DNA of 64,000 bases from an uncultured bacterium (GCA_963819815.1 CAWFXL010000001.1:288001-352000), one strand, 5' to 3'; shown: positions 18,628 to 56,755, counted from the first letter of the stretch. Program-made: numbers and translations. Notes: a model not told the origin generated them from the sequence alone.

Positions 18628-19995
18628 ATGGCGAAAAGATATATTCTTATAGGTCTAACATTCTGCATGGCTGGGGGTCTCGCAGCAAGCGATAGTACTC
18701 AGAAAACTCCGTCATCCTTTACTGCGGGCAAAGCTCTTGGAGCTCTAGGTTTTGCAGGAGCAGCTGCCTACTACGTCTATAGTCATCCTGTAGTGCAATG
18801 GGACACCGTCGGTTTAGGAATGCTAGGAACAGCTGCAGTAAGTTATCTTGGCTATAAGCTTCTTAATCGACAAAAAGAAGTTGAGAAACCGTTGATTGCC
18901 GAAAAACCCTGTCGGGAACCAGTCTTACCGGCGTTCCAACAAAAAATTACGAGTGCTCTCTTTTCAAGTGCTATTGGAGATGCTTTGGGAAGGGTAACCG
19001 AGTTTATTAAGTCACCAGAAGCGCAGTTTGAACGTTATCCTGGTGGCCTTACTTCATTTGATAAGTTTCATCCTGATGATTGGCAGGGGATCCCAAGAGA
19101 ATTTAGGCAAAAAAGAATAGCTCCTTATACGGATGATACTGCCATGGCACTACTTGTTGCTCAGGTCCTTATCGAGTCACAGCACAATAACTGGGATAGA
19201 GATAGTACTATGGGCCACATGGCTGAATCCTTTGTTAAAGATTTAGATAATGCCGACTACGGCTGGGCTGCGGGATACCGTGCTCCCGGTAATGCTTGCC
19301 TTGCGGCTGCACATGTCCTTCAAGGAAAAGCGGCTGCTGAAAAGGCCCGAGCGCGTTGGTGGGACGTTAAGGCAAGCTCTGCTGGAGGATGCGGTTCTGT
19401 TATGCGTGCATTTCCCTTTGGTCTGGTATTTTCCAAGGATCCTCAAAAAGCAAAACTGTGGGCTGTAGAACATTCAAAAATTACTCATGGAGCCCCGAGT
19501 GCTCTTGCTGCATGTGCAGCCATGGCTCTTGGCACCGCAGAGGCTCTCAGGGGAGAGAAAGATCCTCGCTCTATTGTTAACCTTATGATTGAGGCTGCCA
19601 AGGAATATGACGCCGTTACCGCTCAAAAAATGAGCAAGGCTCTTTCCTATGCATCCCAGGCACAAGATATTCTCGGGCGGACATCAGTTAGAGAAGCCTT
19701 TTTAACAAAGGAATTTTTTGATTTTCATAAAAAGGTCTTCAATGAATTTCAAGGATGGTCTGGGCAAGATGCCATAGCAGCTACTGTCTATGTATTTGCT
19801 CTCTTTCCTAAAGATATAGAGTCTGCATTGTATGTAAGCGTCCATACTCCCGGAGATAGTGACAGCATAGCAGCAATGTCTGGGGCTCTCATTGGCGCCT
19901 ATTCTGGAATCATGCCTGACAATAAGATGGTGCAGTCAATTGAAGGTGCTTCTTATATGAGAGAAATAGCTCAACGGATAAGCGATAATCGTTAG
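18628..19995 (+). CDS. ADP-ribosylglycohydrolase (ARH/DraG family) with signal peptide and extra hydrophobic segments
   Basis: AIGDALG, YTDDTAMA, GCGSVMRA, ITHG and GDSDSIAA metal-binding motifs; N-terminus MAKRYILIGLTFCMAGGLAA. Confidence 0.93.
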   Translation: MAKRYILIGLTFCMAGGLAASDSTQKTPSSFTAGKALGALGFAGAAAYYVYSHPVVQWDTVGLGMLGTAAVSYLGYKLLNRQKEVEKPLIAEKPCREPVLPAFQQKITSALFSSAIGDALGRVTEFIKSPEAQFERYPGGLTSFDKFHPDDWQGIPREFRQKRIAPYTDDTAMALLVAQVLIESQHNNWDRDSTMGHMAESFVKDLDNADYGWAAGYRAPGNACLAAAHVLQGKAAAEKARARWWDVKASSAGGCGSVMRAFPFGLVFSKDPQKAKLWAVEHSKITHGAPSALAACAAMALGTAEALRGEKDPRSIVNLMIEAAKEYDAVTAQKMSKALSYASQAQDILGRTSVREAFLTKEFFDFHKKVFNEFQGWSGQDAIAATVYVFALFPKDIESALYVSVHTPGDSDSIAAMSGALIGAYSGIMPDNKMVQSIEGASYMREIAQRISDNR

Positions 19996-20036
19996 AATGT
20001 TATCCCGAACTGGTTAATGAGTATAGAAAAAAAATA

Positions 20037-20071
20037 AGCAGGAAGGCCTTTATCAAAAGGGCTTTCCTGCT
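20037..20071. terminator. Probable bidirectional terminator between convergent genes
   Basis: AGCAGGAAGGCCTTT...AAGGGCTTTCCTGCT stem with A-rich 5' flank. Confidence 0.75.
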
Positions 20072-20118
20072 CTTTCATAAAATACGAAAATGCTCGCAAG
20101 ACAAATTAGTTCAGGAGA

Positions 20119-20559
20119 CTATTCATCTCCATAGCCTCTAAACTTAGACTTTTTGCCCTTCATATCATCGCGAAATCCACAACCCACTGTGTGCAGACGC
20201 GCTACACTCGCTTTCTTTTTGCGGTGTTTGCTTTTCTTAGGTGCCTCTTGGGTTGTATGCTGTTCGATTGCATGAGCAAGCTGCCTTCCTGAAATACGAG
20301 AAAACTGCTCCATTGAAATACCTTGCGTTATTCTTTCCAAAAATCTCAAGATGTCATGACGGTTCTGTGGATTAAGGTTCATTTGACGCATTTGGGCAAG
20401 GGCCTCATTTTCAACAGTCCGCCTTTGAGCTGGAGTAAGGCTTTCTCCTATACGCTGTGCATGCTGAAGTAATTCTTCTTCAAGGGGATCAAATGCGACA
20501 AGAAAGCTGCTTAAAGAGACCATACTCATAAGAAGTAAGGTACAGAAAAACTTTTTCAT
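20119..20559 (-). CDS. Hypothetical secreted protein with basic C-terminal patches
   Basis: RBS AAGGAG, signal peptide MKKFFCTLLLMSMVSLSSFLVA and PKKSKHRKKK. Confidence 0.75.
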   Translation of the reverse strand: MKKFFCTLLLMSMVSLSSFLVAFDPLEEELLQHAQRIGESLTPAQRRTVENEALAQMRQMNLNPQNRHDILRFLERITQGISMEQFSRISGRQLAHAIEQHTTQEAPKKSKHRKKKASVARLHTVGCGFRDDMKGKKSKFRGYGDE

Positions 20560-20837
20560 GGAACTCCTTGAAGTATGTCGAGGTATATACTACAAGTATT
20601 TAGGCCCCGACAGCTGCAATGTTTTTATTATTAATATTATATATTTAATTATATAAGAAAATATTGTTTGGTCAAGAGGTGTTAGGTAGAGTTCTTGGAG
20701 GTCCTAGCTCTACTGGGAGCTGTACAAGAAGATCATTAAGGTCAATATGTACTTGTAATTGATGTATAACCATGACTTATGGTAACCCCTTTGTAACATA
20801 CTATGCTGGTCAGCCGGCCTTTGAGTTAGAGTAAGGG

Positions 20838-22178
20838 TTATGTAGTAATTTCCATGCGTTGTGCCACCTGCCTGAAGTTCTTTAAGGCACCAGCGATCGC
20901 ATATAGGGGGTACGTATGTACTCTGGCATCTTTTTCATAGTTCAGTGTTGAAAAGCGAATGCCGAAAGGCGAGTGTGGGTGGCTATCTAAAAACATCATT
21001 AAGCTCTGGAGTCTTTTTTCAGTGCCACTTTTAACCTCTATAGGTATTATCGATTCATTATCTTGCATGAGATAATCAACTTCAGCCTGACTGTTTCGCG
21101 CCTGTCTCACCCAATAGTATAACTCAGAGTCCATATGGGGGTTTGAATACCCAAGGAGTTCTTGGCCTACAAATGATTCAACTATTTCACCTTTATTAAT
21201 AAGCGCTTCAAGTGGATTCAAAAACCAAGCACTCATATCTTTTTTTAATACTGCTTGGGCAAGTGCAACATCTAAAAAGATTACCTTAAAGGAAGCGCTT
21301 TGAGTGTGAGCTCCAAGAGGAATGCCTTGGCCCGCAGAATGCGTTACCTTATGAATTACGCCTGCTGTAGCCAGTAAGTCAAGTGCAGGAGCTAATTCTC
21401 TCTTGCGATAATCTCCTTCGATTGAGCTATATCTAAATTGTTGCGTTAAAAAACGAGGTACATTTTCAAAAATGATATCGACGTATTTTTCTTGAAATTT
21501 AGTCGCATACTTTTTAAAGTCCTGCTTGTATGCATTGATGAGATCATGTTGGATAGCAAAGCATTCAAGGGGATCTCGCGTTTCTTTCCAGTGGTGGACT
21601 ATCTCCGGCATTCCACCTAGAGCGATATACTGACCAACTGATTCAAGCAATTTCTTATGCAGAGGTTCGCTGAATGGCGCTTGGGATCTTAAAATCTCTT
21701 TTATAATGCCTTCGTGACCAATTGCATAGAGAAACTCTATAAATGTCATAGGATACATATGTAGGAAAGTTACTCTACCTACGGGAGCGCCGATTTTTTC
21801 AAGGGTAAAATCTAACAATGAGCCAGCAGCAATGATATGAATTTGGGGAATCATTTCGTAAAAATAGCGAAGAGCTAGGACAATCTGTGGAGCTGTTTGA
21901 ATCTCATCGAAAAAAAGAAGCACTTTCCCAGGGATAATTGGCCGGTTAAGCTCAAGGGAAAGGTCTCGCAGAATTCTTTGAGGGTCAAGGTCCTTTTCGA
22001 AGTAACCTTTCATCTCTGGCTTTAATTCAAAATTGATCTCTATAAAATCGTCAAAAGATTTTCCCAGTTGCCTGACTGCATAGGTCTTGCCCACCTGCCT
22101 TGCTCCTCGCAACAAGATAGGTTTGGGCCGGGGACTAAGTTTCCACTGCTTTAGGTCGTAGTCTATAAGCCTCTTCAA
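20838..22178 (-). CDS. DUF4143 AAA+ ATPase (intact ATPase plus PD-(D/E)xK-like C-terminus)
   Basis: GARQVGKT, FFDEIQ, GGMPE and AEVDYL...IPIEVKSG. Confidence 0.93.
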   Translation of the reverse strand: MKRLIDYDLKQWKLSPRPKPILLRGARQVGKTYAVRQLGKSFDDFIEINFELKPEMKGYFEKDLDPQRILRDLSLELNRPIIPGKVLLFFDEIQTAPQIVLALRYFYEMIPQIHIIAAGSLLDFTLEKIGAPVGRVTFLHMYPMTFIEFLYAIGHEGIIKEILRSQAPFSEPLHKKLLESVGQYIALGGMPEIVHHWKETRDPLECFAIQHDLINAYKQDFKKYATKFQEKYVDIIFENVPRFLTQQFRYSSIEGDYRKRELAPALDLLATAGVIHKVTHSAGQGIPLGAHTQSASFKVIFLDVALAQAVLKKDMSAWFLNPLEALINKGEIVESFVGQELLGYSNPHMDSELYYWVRQARNSQAEVDYLMQDNESIIPIEVKSGTEKRLQSLMMFLDSHPHSPFGIRFSTLNYEKDARVHTYPLYAIAGALKNFRQVAQRMEITT

Positions 22179-22198
22179 AAGATCCCTTTCATCATACG

Positions 22199-22318
22199 AT
22201 GGTCAAAAAACAAACCTAACTTTGACCTGAATTGGTCGAAATTCAAACCAATAATAACACAATTATGGTCAAAAAACAAACCTAATTTTGGCCTGACTTG
22301 GTCGAAAATCAAACCAAT
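22199..22318. repeat. Four phased repeats, exact 33-bp period (66-bp higher-order duplication), upstream of AAA+ ATPase
   Basis: GGTC(A/G)AAAnnCAAACC at 22201, 22234, 22267 and 22300. Confidence 0.9.
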
Positions 22319-22516
22319 GTAAAAAAGTCTGGAATTTGTGGAAAAAGGAGAATGTTGCAGATATGCTTTCATTAAGGACCATCCGCGGGAATGACCTAAG
22401 GAATGGTTTCGTCAAGTTTGCCTGAATGCATACAGAAAGCCCATAAGTACCTCTTGAGATAGACCACATGCTACCTAAGAGTAGGGCGGTCGGAGAATAT
22501 GATAAATTATTACAAA

Positions 22517-22544: not shown

Positions 22545-22613
22545 AAATTAACGAAGTAGATGTACAATCCCAAGGAATAATCTTAGGAGATTATCTTTTA
22601 ACCAAGGAATCAT

Positions 22614-31283: not shown

Positions 31284-31416
31284 GAGTGGTCGTGACTAGG
31301 GGAAAACAAGAGCCTCGTTATGCCTAGTTAAAAAAATTGAAAAAAATACCATTATTGCTATGCTGTGATCAACATCAATGGCTGTTCACTTACTACTATT
31401 CATTAGGAAAGAATCT

Positions 31417-32747
31417 ATGAAAATGTTCTATCATAAGGTCCTCGCGTTTACGCTGAGTTGCTCAGTTTTTTCCCTATGCGCTTCTGAAAGTCTTTATAAA
31501 GAAGTTCTGAGTGCTACACCCATACGAGAAAGCATTCCCGCTCATGATATAGTTCTCTCAAAAAAGCTTACGAATTTAATAGTGCGTCAGCAGTTCTTCA
31601 AAGAATACAGGGTAATGAGTATGTTAATTCTGTCTCATTTAATAAAGACGGTTCGCTGATTTTCATTGGATCAGGTAACACAATCAGAACATTGTTTGCG
31701 GATGATGGGGCCCTCATAACTGAAATTCAAAACGGTAGCGGTGTTGAAACAGTTTCATTGAGCCAGGATGAATTCCACATTCTTGTAGGTTCGTGCGATT
31801 CAAAAGCAAGGCTTTGGAATGCTTTCGACGGTACCTTAAAGTTGGAGTTTCCTCATGAAAAAGGTCATGTGTTTGCTACCTTTAGCCCCGATGGTGAACG
31901 GGTTCTTACAGGATCACATGATGGTACCGTTAAGATGTGGAATGCAAACACCGGTAAACTCATTTGGTTGTATCGTGATACTAAAACTGTTCCACAAATT
32001 GTCTACAGTCTCTATGGCAACCAAACGGTTGTGGACGCAGTTCCCGGATTCCTCTCAATTGCCTATAGCCCTGATAGCACTTGTGTACTCGCAGGTACAG
32101 CCGATGGTCGAGCTCTCGAATTACATCCCAATACCGGCAAACTAGTGCGCGAGATTACCCATGACGACTTTAGACAAGTTTGGGTGGTAGGTTTTAGTCC
32201 TGACAGTAAGCAACTACTTTCAGGAGGCGGTGATGGCATCGTTAAGCTTTGGGACCGAGAAACGGGTGAAGAAGGTATTAATCTAGTTCATCGGAATCGT
32301 GTAACAGGACGAGCCGATGTAACATCAGCCTGTTATAGTCCCGATGGTAGCTATATTCTTACCGGATCAGTCAATAAAAAGGCAACGTTATGGAATGCAA
32401 AAACGGGCGCCGAGATGCAAGCTTTTTCAATCGATGCGGTATTATATGATGTTGCATTTAGTAACGATGGAACAAAGATACTTGGAGGGTCGAGCGGTAC
32501 AACCGCAACTCTCTGGGATCTCTTTATGGCGCAAGCAAATATCGACCAAGCTGAGTTACTTAAAGCATTTAGCGTAGCGTCATTTAATGAAGACTCTGAC
32601 TCAGTTGGACGTATACATGCTAACCATGCGCAAGGGCGGACTTTTAACTCGTTTCCTACCTATTTGAAAGATAGATTACAGCGACGTATTAAGGCGCCCG
32701 ATAAACGCTACCAAAAAGGCGTCCTCATCGATCAGCTTGAAGACTAA
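31417..32747 (+). pseudogene. Secreted WD40-repeat protein split by a single frameshift near 31605
   Basis: Signal-peptide ORF joins the frame IQGNEYVNSVSFNKDGSLIFIGS... if one A is added at gaa(a)tacag. WD40 motifs FSPDG..VLTGS.DGTVKMWN. Confidence 0.8.
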
Positions 32748-41451: not shown

Positions 41452-41739
41452 CTCACATCATTGATGTAGACCTACCCCCTAAAATAGACCGCTATATAGG
41501 GAAAAATCAGACAAAAATAATTCTCGTGGGGTTTTTAACGGGATCGACTCTCTTTCTTCGACTGAGGTGGTACAACAAGTTGTACAGGAATATTTACAGC
41601 GGGCCAAACCGGGCAATACACCTCTAAAATTAAATCACCGAGCAAGGTAGCTTTCCAAGAAAAGTAGGCCATTGCGCTGTACATGCTCAGGTATAAGAAA
41701 AAAATAGTTTTTAACACTATACGATCTCAAGGAACTATT

Positions 41740-43137
41740 ATGAAAAAGCTTTGCATACTTCTTTTTCTTTGTGCACCCATGCTTACGGTTAAAGGGTATC
41801 ACCTTACACGAATTAACCTGAGTTCTCCTGTGATAAGAGAAATTATGACGATTGTTAACAATCTTGTTGCATTGCAGGAACATATTAATCGGGGGATCGA
41901 TGTAAATGCCTCTATTAATGAACAAGGTGTTACGCTTCTTCACGTTTTCTGCCTATCTAATGGAGATAGAAGACCATTTGTGCGACTGCTTCTTGAAAAT
42001 CGAGCTGATAGTAATGTTCGAGATACAAGTGGATGTACGCCTATGCATTATGCCAGTCAAGCCGGCAATATAGGTTGCATGCAAGAACTCTTGGCGGCGG
42101 GAGCACGGTATAATGAACCGGATGATAAGCGTCACAATCCCTTACATATAGCATGTCACAATAATCAAGCTTCAATTGTAGCATTACTATTAGATCAACC
42201 GAATATTGAGGTTGACCCAATTGATCAGGATAATGCCACGCCTCTTCATGTAGCATCTTCTAATGGGCATCTTGAGATAGTGAAGCTTCTTGTCGAAAAA
42301 AATGCTCAGGTAAACGCGCGTACCAAGAATCAATCAACTCCATTCTATTTAGCATGCCAAGAAGGTCATGTCGATGTAGCGCGATACCTTTTTGAAAAGG
42401 GTGCTCTTTTAGAGGCTCTCTATAATGATGGCAGCACAGCGCTTTATATCGCTGCTAACGAAGGGCATCAAGATGTGGTTAGTTTTCTGCTAGAGAACAA
42501 TGCACAGGTGATGGCCCGGGCTTCTAACGGCATGACTCCACTTCATGTAGCTGCTTACATCGGGAATTTAGGAGTCGTCAAGCTTCTGGTAGACAAGAAA
42601 GCAGATGTTAATGCTCAAGATAACAATCAATGTACTCCATTCTATTTAGCATGCCAGGAGGGACGTGAAGAAGTAGCTCGGTACCTTTTTGAAAAGGGTG
42701 CACTCTTAAAAACTCCGGGTGAGACAATTGCCAGACCTCACCTACACTTTGCAGCTATTAAAAATCATGCTGGGGTTGTTCAATTCTTATGCGAGAAAGG
42801 TGTTCCCGTCAATGGTATTATGGGAGATAGCGGTGCAACCGCACTTCATATGGCTGTTACACAAGGTCACGAAAAAGTTGTAAAAGTGCTGCTTGCCCAG
42901 GGAGCCAACCTAACAAAAAAAACAGTTAGTGGTGAGACAGCTCTAATGCTTGCTCAAGAATATGGGCATCAGCATCTTGTAAAAGTCCTTGAGGAGGCAC
43001 ACTATAGATGTGCTTTCTGTTATAAGATGCATAAAACTTTTCGTTGTGGGCGCTGTAAAGCAGTATATTACTGTGATGGAGAATGCCAAAGAAACCATTG
43101 GTCCACACACAAGCTTAGGTGCAAAGCAACAATCTAA
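41740..43137 (+). CDS. Secreted ankyrin-repeat protein with C-terminal zf-MYND (paralogue of 15418..16836)
   Basis: Signal peptide MKKLCILLFLCAPMLTVKG, ankyrin repeats and CAFC...CGRCKAVYYCDGECQRNHWSTHKLRC. Confidence 0.93.
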   Translation: MKKLCILLFLCAPMLTVKGYHLTRINLSSPVIREIMTIVNNLVALQEHINRGIDVNASINEQGVTLLHVFCLSNGDRRPFVRLLLENRADSNVRDTSGCTPMHYASQAGNIGCMQELLAAGARYNEPDDKRHNPLHIACHNNQASIVALLLDQPNIEVDPIDQDNATPLHVASSNGHLEIVKLLVEKNAQVNARTKNQSTPFYLACQEGHVDVARYLFEKGALLEALYNDGSTALYIAANEGHQDVVSFLLENNAQVMARASNGMTPLHVAAYIGNLGVVKLLVDKKADVNAQDNNQCTPFYLACQEGREEVARYLFEKGALLKTPGETIARPHLHFAAIKNHAGVVQFLCEKGVPVNGIMGDSGATALHMAVTQGHEKVVKVLLAQGANLTKKTVSGETALMLAQEYGHQHLVKVLEEAHYRCAFCYKMHKTFRCGRCKAVYYCDGECQRNHWSTHKLRCKATI

Positions 43138-46577: not shown

Positions 46578-47025
46578 GAGTCTTCCTTGTTGTATTTATT
46601 TGATGTCCAAATAACGATATTTATTTCTTAATTGTAACAAATTTCATAGATTTGTCAATTTTTGAGGACCTGCAACTAGGAAATCTCATTATGAGGGAGT
46701 ATAGGGAGAAAATGGTGATATTGGTATACTATTTTGACCTGAAGATAAGATGCATGAGGAGCTTCGCAATAACATCTGCCACAAATACCTTTGAGTGAAA
46801 AAATGGCTTTGCTCTAAAAACAGGTGATTTCGACTGTTTCTAGAATATCTCGTTCAGGGATAGTCGCTAGGTTAATGTAAAGACAACGCCAGGAGAAAAC
46901 TCAGGTAAATCGCTATGGAAGTAAGGAACTGAAAAGGGGGGCTAAGAGATCCCACAATGGTTGTGATTGCTACGCCCGTCCCATCAGCACTTCTTGATCT
47001 ACCAGTACTTAACAGAAGTAAGTAC

Positions 47026-47649
47026 TTACGCTAACTCATCTTCTGTCTGTCCAGCACTGAGAAGCTTTTCAAAGAGGACATAATCTTTTTGATCCAAGAG
47101 GACGAAACGAATCTCCGTTAGACTGGTCTCATTTTGGGCGACAAAATTGCGGGCTGCTGTAACTGCTGCCTCGGCTGCAAGCTGATGGTCAACATGGTAG
47201 ATACCGCTACTAATAAAAGGAAATGCTATAGTTTTAAAGGTACCATCGCTTGCTAATTTTAAACTGTTTGTATAGGCCGATTCAAGAAGAATGCGCTGTT
47301 GTGTGGGGTCTTTGATGACACGCGCATCTGGTCCTACCGCATGAACTATTTTTATGATACCTATTTTCGTTAGCTTAAAACTATCGGTAATGCGAGCGTC
47401 ACCCACAGGACAGCGGATCCCTTTTTTAAGAGGATATTGATTACATGCCTTTTGGAGCTGGGCTGCACCCGCGGCCCTGTAAATAGCACCACAGACACCA
47501 CCACCCATAACGAGCTGTGGATTTGCTGCATTTACGATAACATCAACCTTCTGGTCAGTAATACTCCCAAGCACTGCATCAATAGTGGTTACTGCATGCA
47601 TCTGATAGACTGAGAGAGTAAGCATAAGTATTAGCGTATTTTTCATCAT
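47026..47649 (-). CDS. Macrodomain (MacroD/YmdB-type) ADP-ribosyl hydrolase with signal peptide
   Basis: GSIT..VDVIVNAAN..L..GGGVCGAI..AAG, VHAVGP and IAFPFISSGIY; N-terminus MMKNTLILMLTLSVYQMHA. Confidence 0.93.
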   Translation of the reverse strand: MMKNTLILMLTLSVYQMHAVTTIDAVLGSITDQKVDVIVNAANPQLVMGGGVCGAIYRAAGAAQLQKACNQYPLKKGIRCPVGDARITDSFKLTKIGIIKIVHAVGPDARVIKDPTQQRILLESAYTNSLKLASDGTFKTIAFPFISSGIYHVDHQLAAEAAVTAARNFVAQNETSLTEIRFVLLDQKDYVLFEKLLSAGQTEDELA

Positions 47650-47899
47650 AAGGTTCCTCTAAAATAGGTTGTTCAAATTTCTTACCTCAAACTACTTAAA
47701 TTTGGCATCATAAATCAAGGGTTTGGCGCTACTCATTGCCTAGGATCTTTGTTGTTGCATCTATGTGATTGATGTGGATGGTTTCTCAAGTTAGAAATCG
47801 ATGGCTACTGCTAATATGATGTACCGAATACAACTTTGCAAACAAGCTTAAAAGCTTGAAAAAGATCACATTTTTCACTGGTTGTTCCTGAGTTGCTAA

Positions 47900-48050
47900 C
47901 AACTTTTTTCCCTGCTAAGTTGACATACTCGCCCATACATTCCGGGGATTCTGGGATCAAACAGCGATAGCCAACAAAGTTGGGCTTACATCACCTACCC
48001 CAAGAGTTGATGCCCCAACTCTTTCGATATTTTTTGCAGCATTATAGTCT
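47900..48050 (-). ncRNA. Predicted TnpB omega/reRNA (scaffold overlapping tnpB 3' end plus flanking guide)
   Basis: Position follows established TnpB biology; guide predicted as CUUAGCAGGGAAAAAAGUUG; 5' boundary approximate. Confidence 0.6.
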
Positions 48051-49303
48051 CTATCATGAGTGGTTCTACACAGAGCACAGGTCCATATTCGATCTTGTAA
48101 ACCAAGATCCTCATGAAGTTCAAAGCACCTATGACATTGTTTTGAACTTGGATAGAATCGGTCTATCATGATAAGCTTTGTTCCTGATTTTTCACAATGG
48201 TGCTTTACTATGCTTACAAACTTTGTGAAAGCAAGATCGGAGACCTTTCTCCCCCAAAGCCTTTTCATTCCTGCTATATTAAAGTCTTCAATACAGATTA
48301 CATCGTACTTTTCTGTAAGCTCTTTGGCTAACTTATGAAAGAAATCATGTCGCTGGTTGCTTACTTTCTTATACCTGCGACAAAGCGTGTAATAGGCCTT
48401 TTCTTTGTTATGAGAGCCCTTTTGCTTGGTCGAGAATTCCTTCCCAGCCTTTCTGAACTCCTGTAAGCCCTGTGTATAGTATAATGGTGCGGTATAGACT
48501 GTTCCATCACTCAGTGTTAAAAACGTTTTCAAGCCAAAATCAATGCCCACAATGTTACCTGATGTGACCGATTTTTTAGCAGGAGCGTCTTCCACTGTGC
48601 AGGTGATGAACAGATAAATATCACCAAGTTTATCACGCTTTATGGTTACTGTATTAATGTCTCCTTTTATTTCCCGAGATTTATGATACTGATATACTTT
48701 ATTACCGATCCGAATTTTATTACCCTCTAGAAGTTTATAACCAGCTTGCTTAAGAGTTAGTGACTTATATTTTTTAATCTTTTTAAAAGATGGGGGGGAG
48801 GCTTTCATTCCCTTTTTGCGTTTCAGAAAGAATTGACTATATGATAGGTATATCCTATCAGTTATATTCTGGATGGCTTGAGATCCAACCTGAGCCCAAT
48901 GCACGTAAGGTTCTTGTTTTTTTATCAGAGTGAGATGTCTTTGTAGATCATATTTAGAAATGAGCTTGTTGTGTTGCTCATAGTAATGATTAATATAGCC
49001 TATACAATAGTTCCATATCTCACCACACGTATCAACAGCGCGATGAAGAGTTTTATTTCTCGAAGCATTGTAGAGTTTAAAAACGTATGTTATTCTCATT
49101 GGGCTTTTAAATCACTTAGTACAAAGGAGAGACTCCTCTGACACTATTTTGATCATTAAAAACCACTACAATTCACATGTGATATTATCAGCAAATGAGA
49201 TACATGCAAGAGTTGTTAGAAGATAGTACCTAGATGAAATCAAGATAATATCTTGTGCTTCTCATCCCAATGAATAAATTTAGGGGCCTTCTCAGCGCAG
49301 AAG
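47920..49303 (-). mobile_element. IS200/IS605-family element carrying tnpB only (IS1341-like, non-autonomous)
   Basis: Minus-strand right end ...GAATCCCC...GAGTATGTCAA ending at 47920. Left end with hairpins CTTCTGCGCTGAGAAGGCCCCTAAATTTATTCATTGGGATGAG, preceded by TTTAC (49304-49308). No tnpA. Confidence 0.75.
47957..49099 (-). CDS. tnpB: RNA-guided endonuclease TnpB
   Basis: RuvC-I GIDFGLK, RuvC-II CIEDFN, Zn finger CHRC/CALC and RuvC-III DRDYNAAKNI. Confidence 0.96.
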   Translation of the reverse strand: MRITYVFKLYNASRNKTLHRAVDTCGEIWNYCIGYINHYYEQHNKLISKYDLQRHLTLIKKQEPYVHWAQVGSQAIQNITDRIYLSYSQFFLKRKKGMKASPPSFKKIKKYKSLTLKQAGYKLLEGNKIRIGNKVYQYHKSREIKGDINTVTIKRDKLGDIYLFITCTVEDAPAKKSVTSGNIVGIDFGLKTFLTLSDGTVYTAPLYYTQGLQEFRKAGKEFSTKQKGSHNKEKAYYTLCRRYKKVSNQRHDFFHKLAKELTEKYDVICIEDFNIAGMKRLWGRKVSDLAFTKFVSIVKHHCEKSGTKLIMIDRFYPSSKQCHRCFELHEDLGLQDRIWTCALCRTTHDRDYNAAKNIERVGASTLGVGDVSPTLLAIAV

Positions 49304-49349
49304 GTAAATTCCTGGCTAGAAGCGATACATATAAACAATGGAGCAAGCG

Positions 49350-52300
49350 ATGAGTTTTAAGTACTATCTTACCTTTTGTCTTATTTTTCAAATGCCTATT
49401 TTTGCAGCCTCAGTTTCGGTTAAATCAGCACCACTAGAAGCTGTTGGGATCATTCACTGTTTAAGCTCAGATTCTAAAAAGCAAAGGCTCGAGCTAGATG
49501 CGACGTGGCTGCAAGAATCGGGATTTATTCAAAGAGCATACTCTGAGAACAATGGTGGCAGGACGAAAGAAGCGGCAATTCAACTGCCACTGAAATTTCA
49601 AGAGATGGAGAAAATCATCAGACTATGTATGAGGAGTCAGGGTGGTGCCCAAGTCAAAATTGAGATGATGGATCTTGCAGGTAGCAATAACGATGCAGAG
49701 GATGATCTCGTAGAACTGGTAAAAACTATCGAAAAACTATTGAAATTCTGGAAAAGCGTTAAAGCAATGGAGATGCGAAAACTGGAACCTATTTTAAGGG
49801 ATAGCATTTTTGATCTCTTAAAGAGAGATCTCATTCTGACATCTTTCTTACAAGATCCACGATTTCTTGAAGCCCTACCCAAGGGTATTAAAGAATTATC
49901 ATTCCAGCTATCAAAGGAAGACCAACAGTTTCTTCGTACTCAGCTCCGAATGGTTATAAAAAGTAAGAAAACTCCCCAGTGTATAGATGTAAGTGGTAAT
50001 TATGCCGTAACCTGTGGTACCCAGAAAAACAGAGCTACCTTTGTGGTCTGGGATATCAAAAAATGTATAGAGGAACGTCGGGTTGAGACTCAGTATCCTG
50101 TTCATACAGTACAGTTTTATAATGGCAATAAAATCATCGCCTGGAGTGAAAAGACCATTGAGCTCTATGATTTATTAGGGAGTACAAATTGTACTCCTCT
50201 TCCCCTGCAAAACCTTCTTGAGGGTATTAATAAGGTCACATCAGTTGCGTATGGAGCTAAGCAAAATAAGCTCGCGATTGCAGCTGATGAAAAAATATTT
50301 ATGGTTGACTTGACTGCCCCTTATCACTATAAGACGCTTAAGGCTCCAACTTCTGAGAAAACGGATAAGAAAGAGAAGTCAAAAAAAAGGGCCGACTCAG
50401 TTGTTCTTTTTGCTGATGAGGATAGGAGTGTCGTTGAAGTGCGACTTAGTGGAGAACTCACGTTTTATCGTCTTGATTCAGATACTGCTATCGAAAAGAA
50501 CTTAGAGGACGTGATAAGCTATTTTTATGTAAATGGTTCAAATCTCGTTACCATTGTATCTAAAAGCAAAGCATGTAACTGGGATTGTCGCGATGGGAGT
50601 CCTTTGGGAGAAGGAAGGGAAGACCAGGTTTTTGTTCCACGCGGACAGCTTGTGGAAGTAACCAAAGATAAAACAATGATTTTTTGTGATATATCGGGTA
50701 AGGAGTTTATGAAAACCTATGAATTTTTAACAGGTAATCGCATGAAAAATGCGATTCAGGTTAAAAATGGTCTTTCTACGGTGATTCCGGATAGCTCCTT
50801 AGGCGAGGTAACTTCTTTCTACATGAGTCCCGATGGAGCATTCTTTATAGGCATAAGCAAGAAGGGATTTCATATTTGGCCCTATAATAGTGAATCGATC
50901 ATGGAGTTTCTTTCGTCTGAAATGTCTCTTGATGTGTGGCTCTGTATGCAACTTTTAATTAATCAGCTACGATCCGGCAAAATGAGCCTTAAGGATACTG
51001 CTTTTTTACAGCAGCCTCATATAGTAGATATTATCAAGGACCTTAGTTTGGATTTGCTTACTCCCTTATTAAACCTATTTCCCGGTTTTCGCAAGGCCGT
51101 TGGTAGTGAATACAACTCTTTTGTCGATGAGGTTTCCTATGAAGCTTCGGAAGACGTTGATTACATCCCGGCAGCAGCTTCAGCTAATCGTGTGCAGGCA
51201 ACATCCGCAGACAGCCCTTTGGGTCAACCAAGGAGTTTTGATCGCCGAAATTCTCTCAAGCGGACAGCGCTATCTGGTGAAGAAGCCAGCAGTAGAGTGG
51301 GAGCCACATCTTCGGGCAGTCCTCAGACTCAACCACGCAAAAGCTCTCTCAGGCAGGCAGCTCATGTGGGCGAAGGACTGTCTTCCCAGAATGGTAAAGC
51401 TGCAGTAACATCTTCAGATAGCCCAGCAACGCAATCCAGAGGCCTTAGTCGCCCAAGCTCTCTCAAACAAATTAATCAAGCAGGCCAAAAAACGGCTACT
51501 TCGGACGGTGATGATCCTCTGGTTTCTCATGATGCCAGCGCAAAAACGGATAAGGGGGTAGAGGTTACTTCAAAAGATAACTCTTTTGATAAGCCGAAGA
51601 GATACTCTTCCCAGCAAAGCTCCCCAAGACCTTTATCTGATAGTAATGGCGGAAGCTCTGCTGTTAGCACTAGTAAGGGTTCTCTGGCAACAAGTTCTTC
51701 TACAGAAAGTCGTCTGCGAAATTCTCCGGTGGTTGCGGCTAGACTTCATGCCGTGCAGGTGGCTGCTGTTAAGGCGGGTTGGAAAGGATCCTCCTCAAGC
51801 ACCAATGTGGGCGCAACTAGCAGTACTATTCAGACAACTTCCTTGAGCACGGAGATTGCGAGTACCTCCAAAGAACCTATAGTTAAGAACGATGTTCCAA
51901 AGAGAACTGCGAGCACTCCGCCCATATCCACAAATGTGTTGACTGCATCAAGTAGTTTAGCAGTGCCGGCTACAGAAAAAACACCAAAAGATCCTTCGGT
52001 TCCCAGCATGTTTGGCACACTCAGTAAAAGCACCTCTGCACTGCAAAGAAGCAGTTCTTCAATAAGTCCTCAAGATACCTCAGAACTGTTTCAAGCTATT
52101 GAATCTGGACTTGCATTGCATAGAGAACGAAATGATCAAGATGCTGAAGAAAGCCTCTTGACCAAAGCAAGTAAAGTTCAAAATGCATTATCAGCATACC
52201 TTCTTGGAGAACTATGCGTGCGAGGATATTGCGGTATTTTTGATCCAGCGGCAGCTGTTAAGCATTTTGAGAGAGCTATGCAGTCCAATATCAATCCAAA

Positions 52301-53402
52301 TTTTAAGGCAGCAGCCCTTTGCCGCCATGGTGAGCTCTACTATTATGGCCTTGGCGTAAAGCGCTCCCAACGGTGGATATTGGACTTAGATACAAAGAAA
52401 CCCGCCGGTAGTACAGGTCCTGAAATCTTCTTTTTACTGCGAGATGATGATGCAGAAGGGAGCAAAGCAGAACTTAGTGAGGTACTTAAGCTTATATGTA
52501 AAGATATGGCTAAAAAAGATGCTCTCTACTCGCTCCTGCAAGGTAGAATACTGTTAGCAACTGCTACTAGTGAGGCACATTATAAAGAGGTGGCCAAGCT
52601 CTTTACAAAAGCTGCTGATTCTGAAGATTTCTTTCTCAAGGCTGAAGCGTACTATAGGCTTGGATTACTCAACGAGCGTCATTTGAAATCAGCTGCAAAA
52701 GCTCAGGGATATCTAGAAAAGGCAGCCACACAAGACGATAATCTCTGGATTAAGGCTCTGGCGGAACTCCAACTTGGACATAGGTGCAGAGATAGGAAGA
52801 ATAAAGAAGGTACTGCACAAGCCAAAGTGCATTATAAAAAGGTAATGACTCAAGAGCACCATATGATTGCGAAAGCTGAAGCTGAGTTCCAATACAATCT
52901 ACTGCCTAAGGAAGATGATGCTCAAGACCTTGCAAACTTAGCCGTTGATTCCTGTTTTAATCTTGCCATGCAGTACTATAATGGAACTGATCCAAGTGTC
53001 CCTATAAACCTTCAGCGTGCATATACTTACTTTCAACGCGTCGCTCAAGAAAGTACGGTAGGTGCACAGCTCGATGAGTCATGGTTTCGTCTAGCACTTA
53101 TGGCAAAGAAAGGTGGCTCCGGTCTAAAAAGAAATACCAAATTTGCCATGGCCTGTTGTGAGCAGCTGAGACAGAGAGGACACGATGGAAAATATAGACA
53201 TAGAGCGCTTCTTATGCTGAGTGTTCAGGCATTACGTGATAAAGAAATCGCCCACGCAAAAGAGCTCATCGCCGAGGCCATAAAGCTTGATCATGATCCA
53301 GAATGTCAAAGAGAGGCTAGGATGCTGCGAGATGAAAAGCTCTCAACACTCGAGAAAAAAGAAGGCCAGGAAAGTGGATCTGAGGGTAACGATTCAGAGT
53401 AG
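49350..53402 (+). CDS. Large secreted multidomain protein: SKP1/BTB-like N-terminus, WD40-like propeller, Ser-rich linker, Sel1/TPR-like repeats
   Basis: Signal peptide; LSSD...LD...QES.FI...IQLPL...MEKIIRLC; VVWDI and CNWDC blades; A.Y.LG..Y.YG.GV Sel1-like motifs. Confidence 0.8.
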   Translation: MSFKYYLTFCLIFQMPIFAASVSVKSAPLEAVGIIHCLSSDSKKQRLELDATWLQESGFIQRAYSENNGGRTKEAAIQLPLKFQEMEKIIRLCMRSQGGAQVKIEMMDLAGSNNDAEDDLVELVKTIEKLLKFWKSVKAMEMRKLEPILRDSIFDLLKRDLILTSFLQDPRFLEALPKGIKELSFQLSKEDQQFLRTQLRMVIKSKKTPQCIDVSGNYAVTCGTQKNRATFVVWDIKKCIEERRVETQYPVHTVQFYNGNKIIAWSEKTIELYDLLGSTNCTPLPLQNLLEGINKVTSVAYGAKQNKLAIAADEKIFMVDLTAPYHYKTLKAPTSEKTDKKEKSKKRADSVVLFADEDRSVVEVRLSGELTFYRLDSDTAIEKNLEDVISYFYVNGSNLVTIVSKSKACNWDCRDGSPLGEGREDQVFVPRGQLVEVTKDKTMIFCDISGKEFMKTYEFLTGNRMKNAIQVKNGLSTVIPDSSLGEVTSFYMSPDGAFFIGISKKGFHIWPYNSESIMEFLSSEMSLDVWLCMQLLINQLRSGKMSLKDTAFLQQPHIVDIIKDLSLDLLTPLLNLFPGFRKAVGSEYNSFVDEVSYEASEDVDYIPAAASANRVQATSADSPLGQPRSFDRRNSLKRTALSGEEASSRVGATSSGSPQTQPRKSSLRQAAHVGEGLSSQNGKAAVTSSDSPATQSRGLSRPSSLKQINQAGQKTATSDGDDPLVSHDASAKTDKGVEVTSKDNSFDKPKRYSSQQSSPRPLSDSNGGSSAVSTSKGSLATSSSTESRLRNSPVVAARLHAVQVAAVKAGWKGSSSSTNVGATSSTIQTTSLSTEIASTSKEPIVKNDVPKRTASTPPISTNVLTASSSLAVPATEKTPKDPSVPSMFGTLSKSTSALQRSSSSISPQDTSELFQAIESGLALHRERNDQDAEESLLTKASKVQNALSAYLLGELCVRGYCGIFDPAAAVKHFERAMQSNINPNFKAAALCRHGELYYYGLGVKRSQRWILDLDTKKPAGSTGPEIFFLLRDDDAEGSKAELSEVLKLICKDMAKKDALYSLLQGRILLATATSEAHYKEVAKLFTKAADSEDFFLKAEAYYRLGLLNERHLKSAAKAQGYLEKAATQDDNLWIKALAELQLGHRCRDRKNKEGTAQAKVHYKKVMTQEHHMIAKAEAEFQYNLLPKEDDAQDLANLAVDSCFNLAMQYYNGTDPSVPINLQRAYTYFQRVAQESTVGAQLDESWFRLALMAKKGGSGLKRNTKFAMACCEQLRQRGHDGKYRHRALLMLSVQALRDKEIAHAKELIAEAIKLDHDPECQREARMLRDEKLSTLEKKEGQESGSEGNDSE

Positions 53403-53435
53403 TTGTAGAAACATCTCTCATCATATTCAAAGTTT

Positions 53436-54215
53436 TTATGAGAACATAGATGCACGTGCTAAGCTATGATGAGAATCCCATTTTTTTTTCGAAATTCCGC
53501 CCAGGATGAGGTACATGCTACACCAAAAAAGAACTGAGAGAAGCGGCAAAGGCTGCATCAGGAGTAATGTAGGCAAGGTATAATTTACCAAATTTGAAGC
53601 TGCATGAAGAAGAAGGGTGAGCTCTATTCTTTGTGATTTGTACACAATGATACCTAACATGAAGCTGAACTGAAAATGTCCATTAACTAAGAGCGCATAG
53701 AGGGTTGGTGCTGGATTTTGAAAGCCTGCATGCATCAAAGTAAATGCGAGTGAGCTCACTAAATTGAAAATAATAAATCCCACCGAAGACAAAGAGTATT
53801 TAGCAAGGATAGATCGAGCAGCAAGCTCTTCTACACAGGCTGATGCACAGACGCCAAAAACCAAGCTATGTACTATAGGTGAAAAGTTCACCCCAAAAAA
53901 TCGTGAAGCTATGAAGTAAGCAGTGAGGATACAAAGGGTACCTGCTATGAGATATATCCAGCGTGGTATTGTTATCGGAATATCAAAAAGAAAGGGGTGC
54001 GTCTTTAAGGAACGCGCCATTAACGGCCTATAAAAATACCCTGCTGTGAGAGCAATAGCATAAGCATAGAGAGGAGCCTGCCGAAGGATATTCTTCCCCG
54101 GCCCAAATGAAAAGAACCAGATACATGCGCCCCAGAGCAGCTGAGCCATAGCCCAGAATACTATTTCTATATAGTCCTTTTTAGAACGAGCAGTTAGTGC
54201 CGTATTATTTTTCAT
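53436..54215 (-). CDS. CPBP (Abi/CAAX) intramembrane protease
   Basis: VEELAAR, FTLMH and LHAASN motifs; multi-TM; SD GGAGG before ATG 54215. Confidence 0.82.
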   Translation of the reverse strand: MKNNTALTARSKKDYIEIVFWAMAQLLWGACIWFFSFGPGKNILRQAPLYAYAIALTAGYFYRPLMARSLKTHPFLFDIPITIPRWIYLIAGTLCILTAYFIASRFFGVNFSPIVHSLVFGVCASACVEELAARSILAKYSLSSVGFIIFNLVSSLAFTLMHAGFQNPAPTLYALLVNGHFQFSFMLGIIVYKSQRIELTLLLHAASNLVNYTLPTLLLMQPLPLLSVLFWCSMYLILGGISKKKWDSHHSLARASMFS

Positions 54216-54435
54216 TGCCACCTCCATCAAGACTACTCCAATCCTTAATCACTTCAAGACGGTCTGGATCTTGGCTTGCAAGCTCATATTCTCTACGCAA
54301 ATCCTTTATCTTCTGATCGAGTGCACTGTGTAAGGCTTGAGCAGCAAAAGCACTTAGCTTCCTTTTTCCAATGAGTCCATTCATAAGATCGACTGTCTCT
54401 TTAGGAAGAGATATGGTAACTTTTGCTTTCCTCAT
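54205..54435 (-). CDS. Small RHH/CopG-type DNA-binding protein resembling type II antitoxins
   Basis: KVTISLP beta strand, then helix and KLSAFAAQAL helix, with acidic tail LRREYE...KDWSSLDG; RBS AAGGA. Confidence 0.75.
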   Translation of the reverse strand: MRKAKVTISLPKETVDLMNGLIGKRKLSAFAAQALHSALDQKIKDLRREYELASQDPDRLEVIKDWSSLDGGGNEK

Positions 54436-54714
54436 TCAGATAATCCTTTATCAAGGTTGATACTCTATGCTTTTACACGGTATTATGCTCCAGAAAAGAT
54501 AAAACCTCAAGCAAAAACCCTAGTTCATTCTGGTGTTTAAACGATAGTAAGGGTTGTTTGAGAAGCTAACAATAGCCAATTGTCACACTGGTTCTTCAAA
54601 CAACTGCTAACTGTTCATGTATGTCTAACCTTCGGGGGAGCTTTTGCGGTTATATTGGGTTCATATACATTTAATACATGACAAATAGGTAAACCAATAA
54701 CTCGGAGAAATATC

Positions 54715-55599
54715 ATGACGAGTACAACAGTACTACTGCCTATTCTTGCAGCACTTACGGTCGCACAGGAAAAATTCTTAGGATTCAAAGAGACGTGGCA
54801 GCCGACCAATAATGCGCAAACGCTCTTTTTAGAACGGTATTACGCTAAAGCAGATGAGCTTAAAAAGCTATCTCATGAGGAAATGCGTTCTTGTGCCTCC
54901 AAAGATATAGAGGTTGTTAACAAATTTTTGAGCGATAATGGTTTTACGATTCAGCTTGAACAAGCAAAAGGAGATTGCTTTGCAGTGGCATCCATCCTTG
55001 ATATTTTGTGTAAGTGGACAGTAAAAGGGCAGAAAGACTTTATTACTTTTGATAATGCAGGCAACTCAACAAAGAAAACCTACCCAGCTGTTCGCATGAA
55101 AGAAGGATATACCATCAGACAAACCGAAACAGATAATCCTCTACTTGTGATCGACACGGAAAATGGTGATAAAGTCTTTATGACGATCGCTGAAAAGCCG
55201 CTAGAAGGCTTTGAGCTTGTAGAAAGGGTACAGGAGCTCTCATCGACTTCCAATGAAGATATTACCTGTAGATTTGAGGACGTGCTTTTCCCGATGGTTG
55301 ATATCGATCAGAAAGGCTCTATTGACTGGCTCATTGGATTGAGGTTTGCACCAGACTGGTTTATTTCACAAGCACTTCAACAAACTCGTTTTCAGATGAA
55401 TGAAGAGGGTGCAGCTGCACAAAGCGCTGTGGCTATATCGATTGAAAAATGCATAAACCGACATAGGCCTCCGACGCTTCGGATAGATAAACCATTCTAT
55501 GTATGGATTGAACGACCAGGTATGACATTACCATTATTTGCTGCATATGTAGATTTTGCCGATTGGAAGGAGCCAGCACGTCTAGGCTGTTCAAAATAA
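54715..55599 (+). CDS. Serpin-like protein (shortened)
   Basis: ISQALQQTRFQMNEEGAAAQSAVA hinge followed by LRIDKPFYVWI serpin-signature-like strand. Confidence 0.7.
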   Translation: MTSTTVLLPILAALTVAQEKFLGFKETWQPTNNAQTLFLERYYAKADELKKLSHEEMRSCASKDIEVVNKFLSDNGFTIQLEQAKGDCFAVASILDILCKWTVKGQKDFITFDNAGNSTKKTYPAVRMKEGYTIRQTETDNPLLVIDTENGDKVFMTIAEKPLEGFELVERVQELSSTSNEDITCRFEDVLFPMVDIDQKGSIDWLIGLRFAPDWFISQALQQTRFQMNEEGAAAQSAVAISIEKCINRHRPPTLRIDKPFYVWIERPGMTLPLFAAYVDFADWKEPARLGCSK

Positions 55600-55742
55600 C
55601 TAAAGCCTCACTGTAGCTGTTTGTACGCAACTATATATAATACAGATGCTGTCGCCGTGAGTATGCCCACAATGGTCCTAGAGGTGCTCGTATCTGCAGC
55701 ACAGAAGCCCTGTAAGGTTTATGCAGAAAAAGAATAAACAAA

Positions 55743-55772
55743 TTGACAGGCTGTATTGATTTGTGGTATAAT
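55743..55772 (+). promoter_or_regulatory. Consensus sigma70 promoter with extended -10
   Basis: TTGACA-18 bp-TATAAT with TGn; upstream of the NADAR gene. Confidence 0.75.
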
Positions 55773-55852
55773 GGCTCTATAAACAGTATAATGTTGGAAA
55801 ATTACGAAATCTCCAACAAACTATGTAACCACTACTAAGAAAGTGATAAATC

Positions 55853-56755
55853 ATGAAAAAACAGTTTACAGCCCTGTATGGCATTGCAATGATTCTGGGA
55901 ATCTTTGGATACACTGTATCTACAAGCGCAGCGAGTTCAAGTATGTCAGCCTCGGCAACGTCTGCAACTCGCCCTACGATTAAAAATACCTGGTTTGACC
56001 AGAGGATAAAAAATCGAGGATTCATATATTTTTATGAAAAACCCGATCCTTCTTTGTCAAATCAGGAAAAGAAAGAATATTATTATGAATTTACTAATTT
56101 TTTTGAGGCACCTATAACAATCGATAAAGACGGCCAAGGCAATGATCTTGTCTGGCCGACTACAGAACAATACTACCAAGCAGGAAAGTTTGATGTAGGA
56201 ACCCCTAAGAATCCCAACGTGGTGGGCAGGGCGATCAGAGGATTAATTAGAGAAGGACAAAGCAAAAACCCTCTCTTTAAAGGAGTTGTGAAGGGTTCAG
56301 GAAAAGACTGGGGTGCTTGGGCTTTTTATGTAGGGAATGAGTCCCAATTGCAGGAAAAAAGACCTGATCTCAATCTCGGAGCATACAGGAAACCTGCTTC
56401 AGTATGGACCAAACCGGACTCACATACGCAAGGTATGCCAACGAATATGTTTAGAATGCTGACGGCGCTGCGTGCAAAATTTAGGCAGAATCCCGCGCTT
56501 GGGAAGATGCTTCTTGCAACCTATCCAAAAGTGCTTGTTGAAGATTCACCAAAAGATGGAACTTTTGGGGCAAGCGATCCAGCGAAGGGTGTTGCACCAG
56601 GAAAAGGCCAAAACTTATTAGGACGCATGCTCATGCATGTCAGAAAAGAACTCTTCCTAGAGTTTGTACAGAAAGATCCAAATTTTGAAAGACCTTTTGA
56701 TGTGGATAAGAGTTTCAGTTTAGACTATCTTTTAGACCCAACTCATAAGATCTAA
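55853..56755 (+). CDS. NADAR (YbiA-like) family hydrolase with signal peptide
   Basis: FTNFFEAP, WPTTEQYYQAGKF, ALRAKFRQNPALGKMLLAT..LVEDSPKD..FG and GQNLLGRMLMHVR; N-terminus MKKQFTALYGIAMILGIFG. Confidence 0.9.
   Translation: MKKQFTALYGIAMILGIFGYTVSTSAASSSMSASATSATRPTIKNTWFDQRIKNRGFIYFYEKPDPSLSNQEKKEYYYEFTNFFEAPITIDKDGQGNDLVWPTTEQYYQAGKFDVGTPKNPNVVGRAIRGLIREGQSKNPLFKGVVKGSGKDWGAWAFYVGNESQLQEKRPDLNLGAYRKPASVWTKPDSHTQGMPTNMFRMLTALRAKFRQNPALGKMLLATYPKVLVEDSPKDGTFGASDPAKGVAPGKGQNLLGRMLMHVRKELFLEFVQKDPNFERPFDVDKSFSLDYLLDPTHKI

Follow-up and report, generated by a model that had tools for sequence, protein, structure and literature searches.

Within a 64,000-nucleotide stretch of DNA from an uncultured member of the Dependentiae, an obligate parasite of protists (GCA_963819815.1, CAWFXL010000001.1:288001-352000; the whole stretch is referred to below as the window), we find three independent genes, each of which encodes an apparently active ADP-ribose remover carrying a putative Sec-type leader. 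The encoded proteins belong to the ADP-ribosylglycohydrolase, macrodomain and NADAR families and are called here ARH, Macro and NADAR. On comparative evidence, all three very probably leave the bacterial cytoplasm, and on balance we favor the reading in which they are exported erasers acting on ADP-ribose written by the host, whereby we infer that the leaders are cleaved and the proteins carried beyond the periplasm, as well as their enzyme activity, their substrates and the host origin of the modification. The source genome (G000) comprises 1.64 Mb on two contigs and is 88% complete, the window being G000:C1:288001-352000. Of the relatives that bear a name, the closest to this genome is a metagenome-assembled genome labeled 'Candidatus Dependentiae bacterium', whose ARH protein is 95% identical. 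An earlier note on this DNA had placed three open reading frames (ORFs) at 18628-19995 (+), 47026-47649 (-) and 55853-56755 (+), and all three are found at these positions. Their features are as follows.

18619..18622, plus strand: GAGG ribosome-binding site, 5 nt ahead of the ARH ATG (upstream sequence)
18628..19995, plus strand: ARH gene, ADP-ribosylglycohydrolase family, 455 aa (Pfam PF03747, E 2.3e-51)
18628..18687, plus strand: ARH residues 1-20, signal-peptide-like leader, MAKRY followed by ILIGLTFCMAGGLAA (leader rule, hydropathy, conservation in the G001 orthologue)
18730..18861, plus strand: ARH residues 35-78, two moderately hydrophobic Gly/Ala-rich segments (Kyte-Doolittle 15-residue windows of ~1.4)
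18955..19911, plus strand: ARH catalytic domain, residues 110-428, with the di-metal motif set intact (Pfam and motif alignment)
47026..47649, minus strand: Macro gene, MacroD-type family with a GxGxC loop, 207 aa (Pfam PF01661, E 2.1e-29)
47655..47659, minus strand: GAGGA ribosome-binding site, 5 nt ahead of the Macro ATG (upstream sequence; none before Met17)
47593..47649, minus strand: Macro residues 1-19, signal-peptide-like leader, MMKNTLILMLTLSVYQMHA, directly followed by the first strand of the domain (leader rule, hydropathy)
47164..47535, minus strand: Macro domain, residues 39-162 (Pfam)
55853..56755, plus strand: NADAR gene, YbiA family, 300 aa, with a ~90-aa insert within the fold (Pfam PF08719, E 2.9e-22, in two stretches)
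55853..55966, plus strand: NADAR residues 1-38, signal-peptide-like leader (~1-26) and Ser/Ala-rich linker (leader rule; predicted local distance difference test, pLDDT, <50)
56021..56668, plus strand: NADAR fold, ~residues 57-272, with E105, E230 and D235 (alignment and model)

Catalytic domains and leaders of the three enzymes

ARH scored 175.6 bits against the ADP_ribosyl_GH profile (PF03747; cut-off 26.2), covering profile positions 2-281 of 287, and its relatives of solved structure are M. jannaschii MJ1187, human ARH3 and ARH1, and DraG. The motifs of the family are all present (GDALG..TEF, YTDDT, GGCGSVMR, TH and GDSDS) and near-invariant across 114 aligned homologues, those of the TDDT and GDxDT/S types being what we take to be the binuclear metal site of ARH1, ARH3 and DraG. 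Scores against the NCBIfam equivalog models fell below cut-off, both for DraG (TIGR02662, 50.1 vs 337) and for Tri1 (NF041672, 39.7 vs 490). The two hydrophobic Gly/Ala-rich segments that follow the leader, at residues ~36-51 and ~60-75, may form a hairpin anchor tethering the domain to a membrane. This N-terminal module (18628-18861) is repeated, at 48% identity across residues 6-52, on an unrelated ORF of 343 aa ending in a Lys/Arg-rich C-terminus (G000:C1:677763-678794, minus strand), for which a Pfam scan matched no family; the module is present in the related genome G001 too. G000 also holds a second ARH paralogue (L002/L047; G000:C1:1093217-1094338, minus strand) with a signal-peptide-like leader, which has lost the TE, DD, H and DSDS residues and may be a pseudo-enzyme or serve to bind ADP-ribose.

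Macro reached 102.3 bits against PF01661 (cut-off 22), with the NAAN motif and the Gly-rich catalytic loop present. Its best match in the PDB was E. coli YmdB (E 4.7e-30), residue 3 of which aligns to residue 21 of Macro. The catalytic loop reads GGGVCGAIY where that of YmdB reads GGVDGAIH, Cys replacing Asp and Tyr replacing His. According to the loop classification excerpted from PMC11490716, macrodomains fall into MacroD1/2 (GGGxDx3H), coronavirus (HGGG) and alphavirus (GxGxC) groups; Macro is thus of the GxGxC type and not of the MacroD1/2 subgroup with its Asp/His dyad. The Cys loop was found in nearly all of the 120 best database matches of Macro, cytoplasmic Firmicutes proteins included, and is thus a conserved subfamily trait, neither a sign of decay nor a viral signature. 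The best score against a YmdB-type NCBIfam equivalog was 137 (cut-off 200), and a Zn-dependent macrodomain was ruled out, Macro having no Cx4HxC loop. A second Macro domain, 65% identical to that of the window, forms the C-terminus of a 620-aa protein in which a hydrophobic N-terminus and ankyrin repeats precede it (L025; G000:C1:593378-595240, plus strand); a kinase assignment for the N-terminal half of this paralogue was discarded, the APH and ABC1 matches being sub-threshold (E 0.004 and 0.028). In another Dependentiae genome, five Macro-domain genes or fragments lie in tandem (G005:C1:6040-11161), each with its own hydrophobic leader wherever the ORF is complete.

NADAR scored 80.1 bits against PF08719 (cut-off 35.1), and a profile built on 15 of its homologues matched E. 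coli YbiA across the whole domain (E 4.9e-41) as well as the P. nicotianae NADAR structure 8bau. Its AlphaFold model (pLDDT 84; predicted template modeling score, pTM, 0.81; residues 1-38 below 50) gave strong Foldseek matches to 2b3w (YbiA) and 8bau only, both with a probability of 1.00. E105, E230 and D235 are invariant in the 15 homologues, and E230, in the motif LVE, aligns with the LVE of YbiA. As outlined in the part of PMC11125620 available to us, the YbiA family is marked by a Glu in the last strand, where the BC4488 type has Asp and the phage type His. By our own reading of the alignment, E230 appears to be this family-defining residue, which would make NADAR a member of the YbiA type. 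Against a model for riboflavin-intermediate N-glycosidases it scored 67.9 bits, just below the cut-off of 73.7. Seven NADAR homologues from related genomes (L054, L055, L056, L057, L058, L059 and L061, from G005, G002, G009, G008, G014, G038 and G040) consist of a leader, a domain of ~150 aa and NADAR. The middle domain is unrecognized by Pfam, and its AlphaFold model (pLDDT 80.6) matches Nudix hydrolases, with 183 Foldseek matches at E <= 0.001 that include NUDT7, CoA pyrophosphatase and NrtR; in our own reading of the sequences, the Nudix box of these fusions looks degenerate.

The Pfam profiles thus bear out the assignment of the three proteins to their families, with the motifs kept. The earlier note had gone further in using the names DraG and MacroD; these hold at the level of the family and fail at that of the named enzyme, no NCBIfam equivalog cut-off being reached, and as far as their sequences tell the three proteins are family members, not orthologues of named enzymes.

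Leaders were scored with a simple heuristic of our own. The N-termini of ARH, Macro and NADAR all pass this rule, each having Lys or Arg, then an uncharged hydrophobic core, then small residues at positions -3/-1. None of them contains a 19-residue Kyte-Doolittle window of at least 1.6, so that they resemble short h-regions more than membrane anchors; an N-terminus of this kind is missing from cytoplasmic homologues such as E. coli YmdB. The annotated starts of ARH and Macro have Shine-Dalgarno-type sites ahead of them, whereas no such site lies before the internal Met codons, Met17 of Macro included. Across 41 related genomes, the rule detected a leader before the domain in 18 of 21 Macro, 18 of 22 ARH and 8 of 13 NADAR ORFs, counts that take in the copies of G000 itself, two pseudogene pieces, one duplicate and two short cytoplasmic-type NADARs. 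Several of the misses proved by eye to be failures of the rule or non-ATG starts (L016, L019, L024, L055 and L061), the true exceptions being the ARH of genome G006, the two pseudogene pieces and the two short YbiA-like NADARs. In a database of 5.8 billion proteins, leaders were carried by 82 of the 90 Macro matches ranked 1-90 and by 3 of the 30 ranked 91-120, the latter being largely Firmicutes-type proteins of ~330 aa that mostly start directly at the domain. The corresponding figures were 99 of 120 for ARH, several misses being truncated gene calls, and 13 of 15 for NADAR. The few named matches were mostly 'Candidatus Dependentiae' or 'Babeliales'. The leaders that homologues carry are hydrophobic yet divergent in sequence.

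Signal-peptide-like N-termini on all three proteins, claimed as Sec-type in the earlier note, are thus backed by the ribosome sites of ARH and Macro, by the hydrophobic leaders of diverged homologues and, for NADAR, by a model in which residues 1-38 have no structure. That the leaders are instead annotation artefacts, with the true starts lying downstream (Met17 of Macro, Met31 of NADAR) and the enzymes cytoplasmic, we consider extremely improbable. A start at Met17 would give a Macro protein beginning where YmdB begins, and NADAR has in-frame Met codons at positions 13 and 31 behind a ribosome site that is only weak; set against this are the placement of the Shine-Dalgarno-type sites just described, the replacement of Met17 by Val (GTG) in the G001 orthologue, the lack of any in-frame Met in ARH from residue 65 to the domain and, among most homologues, the lack of a Met near the domain start together with the retention of a hydrophobic leader of unrelated sequence. 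Comparison of G000 with G001 upstream of Macro was uninformative as a test of coding constraint, the two being ~95% similar there.

The search for a cognate transferase

Pfam domains of ADP-ribosyltransferases (ARTs) were found in none of the 52 other window ORFs scanned, and searches of G000 for eight families (PARP, ART, ADPrib_exo_Tox, DarT, SIR2, DRAT, Enterotoxin_a and RES) were all negative. At the level of the phylum, ART and PARP families were matched in 0 of 151 Dependentiae genomes, and the 125 neighbors of homologues in related genomes yielded neither an ART domain nor a recurrent partner. The observation of the earlier note that no transferase was recognized beside any of the three genes can thus be extended from the window to G000 (eight families), to the phylum (two families) and to the neighborhoods of the homologues.

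These results bear on whether the three proteins could be ordinary immunity proteins or antitoxins directed against the bacterium's own or its rivals' ART toxins, following the logic of DraT/DraG, DarT/DarG, DarT1/NADAR and Tre1/Tri1. All three folds act in such a capacity elsewhere, as documented in the accessible portions of PMC11125620 and PMC11543638, and NADAR gave weak matches to anti-phage NADAR models. The writer that this explanation calls for was found in none of the eight family searches of G000, where DRAT (PF07357) and DarT (PF14487) are both missing from the matches, and the 125 neighbors include no conserved gene and no ART; nor does an ART adjoin the NADAR gene or its homologues. 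NADAR also departs from what marks a DarTG1 antitoxin, in that it has no adjacent DarT and carries the YbiA-type Glu instead of the BC4488-type Asp, while the DraG and Tri1 scores of ARH lie far under cut-off (50 vs 337 and 40 vs 490). PADLOC returned no match for ARH or Macro and a single weak one for NADAR, which is not evidence of a defense system. Finally, protection from NAD-dependent toxins would be needed in the cytoplasm, which would conflict with a conserved export leader. An immunity role is, in our estimate, very unlikely.

Export, destination and gene organization

How much the leaders say about the destination of the enzymes depends on how ordinary such leaders are. The rule flags 588 of 1469 greedy ORF calls of G000 (40%), or 428 (29%) when ORFs with a further membrane segment are set aside, 22 of the 58 window ORFs at their longest start, with several more passing from a downstream start, and 48 of the 89 neighbors of homologues in related genomes. 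Three leaders out of three would arise by chance in ~6% of cases if independent, and are thus only mildly unusual. In line with these counts, the sections of PMC6561590 at hand report signal peptides on 44% of the coding sequences of C. destructans, a cultured member of the Dependentiae, and on 78% of its ankyrin proteins, and those of PMC4378268 report them on 79 of the 126 ankyrin proteins of Babela, and likewise on its secreted ubiquitin hydrolases and Ulp1-like peptidases. The earlier note had described the N-termini as added, like those of neighboring ankyrin/WD40 proteins; with leaders on 40% of G000 ORFs and on 48 of 89 neighbors, they are no addition special to the three enzymes. With signal peptides on ~40% of a Dependentiae proteome, a leader alone says little about any single protein. 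ARH, Macro and NADAR belong, rather, to the accessory proteins of the phylum that carry leaders, a very large set commonly interpreted as directed at the host.

A route beyond the periplasm is suggested by secretins, for which G000 gave 4-5 matches: three secretin-domain genes lie within 8 kb (G000:C1:1178086-1185459) and a fourth locus, whose match is split by a TGA, lies at C1:22164-22663. Two gspD copies are listed as core to the phylum in the part of PMC4776705 available. In the mechanism that we favor, Sec would translocate each protein out of the bacterial cytoplasm, and a type II apparatus (secretins; PMC4378268) or outer-membrane vesicles would presumably take it on to the host, as for the leader-bearing ankyrin proteins of the phylum. 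There it would hydrolyze ADP-ribose put on proteins or nucleic acids by host PARPs or ARTs, using the di-metal site in ARH, the GxGxC loop in Macro and the YbiA-type Glu/Asp site in NADAR.

The enzymes might also travel no further than the periplasm or envelope and serve the bacterium itself, for example by setting ADP-ribose free from NAD metabolites of the host or from ADP-ribosylated material, as an energy parasite scavenging nucleotides might. With nothing more than a Sec leader a protein is placed in the periplasm, and among the 29-40% of ORFs that carry one, many are necessarily envelope proteins. A role in salvage would also suit the relatives that fuse a leader and a Nudix fold to NADAR, Nudix enzymes being processors of ADP-ribose, as well as the NUDIX neighbor beside one Macro homologue and the score of NADAR just short of the riboflavin-intermediate N-glycosidase cut-off (67.9 vs 73.7 bits). 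However, the Nudix box of the fusions looks degenerate in our reading, no uptake or salvage genes are linked to the hydrolases among the window ORFs or the neighbors of homologues, and the ankyrin fusions, together with the same leader on ankyrin proteins, deubiquitinases and Ulp1-like proteins (PMC4378268, from the sections at hand), point toward the host. We regard confinement to the periplasm as unlikely.

Export to the host, which we continue to favor, has to be set against a number of observations. A Sec leader alone amounts to delivery to the periplasm only, and as the default of the phylum for accessory proteins it does not single out ADP-ribose erasers. The leader rule is crude, passing 63-82 of 958 internal control segments, and the ribosome site of NADAR is weak (GAAAG). 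The extra hydrophobic segments of ARH leave its topology ambiguous, and topology is not uniform in its family: some homologues have a leader and a single membrane segment followed by Lys/Arg, which in the bacterial inner membrane would place the catalytic domain in the cytoplasm, and the closest non-identical ARH (G006, 54% identity) has a long hydrophilic N-terminal extension and no leader. The failure to detect a transferase is limited by the 88% completeness of the genome and by ART folds that are often too divergent for Pfam, and its sensitivity is unproven, 14 control genomes having been equally blank in five of the eight G000 searches and in both phylum searches. Among public sequencing runs covering window positions 46900-56850, no RNA run was found and a single DNA run was (0.10 share of sampled words). 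From the earlier note's picture of an exported anti-host system, the families, the leaders and the lack of a detected transferase were retained; the toolkit was not, and the step beyond the periplasm is one that we infer.

The rejection of the toolkit follows from the arrangement and distribution of the genes. ARH and Macro are 27 kb apart and Macro and NADAR 8 kb, on both strands, each alone between flanking gaps of 94-448 bp. Of the 151 genomes sampled from the phylum, 23 carry ARH, 51 Macro and 25 NADAR. The three families coincide in six (G000, G005, G009, G071, G131 and G150), where ~1.3 would be expected if they were independent, but three of the six represent one genus and all six are among the larger genomes (1.5-1.8 Mb); co-occurrence was for this reason rejected as proof of a toolkit and is taken to reflect what genomes rich in effectors have in common rather than linkage. 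Being dispersed, separately transcribed and patchily distributed, the genes are best regarded as independent effectors and not as a system, and the labels 'toolkit' and 'system' were dropped. Hints of functional coupling come from leader-bearing ARH-Macro fusions in two metagenomic proteins, P0211 (701 aa) and P0238 (666 aa), in which a leader and a Lys-rich linker are followed by ARH and then Macro, and from the ankyrin-Macro fusion of G000 behind its hydrophobic N-terminus. Orphan erasers are found on their own, in tandem arrays and fused as ARH-Macro, ankyrin-Macro or Nudix-NADAR. The broader proposal, in which Dependentiae use Sec and type II secretion to export orphan erasers belonging to three unrelated folds and so strip the ADP-ribose that the PARPs or ARTs of their protist hosts have written, is put forward tentatively, and in this full form we hold it to be somewhat doubtful.

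Relation to known erasers and genomic setting

Among RNA viruses, ADP-ribose erasers aimed at the host are firmly documented; the bacterial examples are for the most part Legionella effectors, which reverse modifications made by transferases of Legionella itself. A close precedent is an intracellular bacterium of amoebae that delivers macrodomain-fold ADP-ribosylhydrolases into its host: in Legionella pneumophila, Larg1/Lpg0081 reverses the action of Ceg3, and MavL reverses ubiquitin ADP-ribosylation, as described in the portions seen of PMC9191684, PMC10989772 and PMC11668277. Those effectors reach the host through the Dot/Icm type IV system and reverse the mark of a paired transferase effector, whereas the leader of the window proteins looks Sec-type and no bacterial writer was found for them in the searches above; moreover, ARH and NADAR folds occur here besides Macro. 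Within the phylum, the enzymes resemble the signal-peptide-bearing erasers of Babela (ubiquitin C-terminal hydrolases and Ulp1-like desumoylases) and the ankyrin proteins in their leader (PMC4378268 and PMC6561590, each in part). Shared with them, too, are a presumed route by Sec and type II secretion and the principle of removing a modification found on eukaryotic proteins, which here would be ADP-ribose instead of ubiquitin or SUMO.

Like the viral macrodomains (alphavirus nsP3, coronavirus Mac1), which are thought to remove host-written ADP-ribose, the window proteins would be orphan erasers without a writer of their own. Macro has the alphavirus-type GxGxC loop, going by the classification excerpted from PMC11490716, although the same loop is found in cytoplasmic Firmicutes homologues; and viral macrodomains are made inside the host cell within a polyprotein, whereas Macro is free-standing and has two bacterial membranes to cross. 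Among solved structures and named enzymes, the three catalytic domains are nearest to E. coli YmdB, E. coli YbiA and DraG/Tri1/ARH3. All of these are cytoplasmic and leaderless, and they differ further from the window proteins in that NADAR has an insert of ~90 aa and ARH an N-terminal extension of ~100 aa.

Searches of the literature found no work linking Dependentiae with ADP-ribose erasers and no bacterial case of a secreted or signal-peptide-bearing macrodomain ADP-ribosylhydrolase. The string 'ADP-ribos' has 0 occurrences in the main text, as far as it was available, of three Dependentiae genome papers (PMC6561590, PMC4776705 and PMC4378268), whose supplementary tables could list such genes. 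The three enzymes are one instance of a known Dependentiae strategy and resemble the Legionella macrodomain effectors; what is new is the modification that they would target, the involvement of three folds, ARH and NADAR among them, and the apparent absence of a bacterial writer. If our reading is correct, they would be a bacterial counterpart of viral macrodomains, and ADP-ribosylation, including the nucleic-acid type reversed by NADAR, would be a front-line antibacterial defense in unicellular eukaryotes. Leader-bearing ARH, Macro and NADAR proteins across the phylum, without a detectable writer, would mark host-written ADP-ribosylation as a target of bacteria that parasitize protists, and the candidate enzymes and their natural fusions could help to identify which molecules the PARPs and ARTs of protists modify in the course of infection.

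The three genes lie among housekeeping genes (ribosomal protein L9, DnaB, RuvC, DNA polymerase III beta subunit and a RecF-like protein) and genes of a host-interaction type, comprising five ankyrin proteins (two with MYND fingers), WD40, Sel1 and serpin-like proteins and large ORFs without a family; further window genes encode an AbiEi/AbiEii pair and a TnpB of the IS605 type. GNAT matches of the gene upstream of ARH (17908-18534) were all sub-threshold and were not retained. An AAA_14/DUF4143 ATPase family is represented three times in the window (3-452, 12782-13960 and 20838-22178), one copy lying directly downstream of the ARH region. The TnpB gene (OrfB_IS605 and Cas12f1-like TNB domains; 47957-49099, minus strand) lies 307 bp upstream of the Macro gene, which sits at a rearrangement boundary: similarity to the 95%-identical relative G001 ends ~85 bp upstream of its start (47650-47735). 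A FAD-dependent oxidoreductase (DAO; 32783-34064, minus strand) is split into two overlapping ORFs, one of 135 aa with the N-terminal Rossmann part and one of 301 aa with the remainder, which suggests a frameshift or a pseudogene. The WD40 protein (31692-32747, plus strand) lacks a leader where its own ORF begins. An ORF of 93 aa with a signal-peptide-like segment, MKMFYHKVLAFTLSCSVFSLCAS, stops 33 bp before it (31378-31659, plus strand), and the two may represent a split gene or a mis-called start. Finally, a MYND zinc finger, a domain typical of eukaryotes, forms the C-terminal end of the ankyrin-repeat proteins at 15397-16836 and 41683-43137 (both plus strand); a signal-peptide-like leader is present at the called start in one of them, and from a start further downstream in the other.

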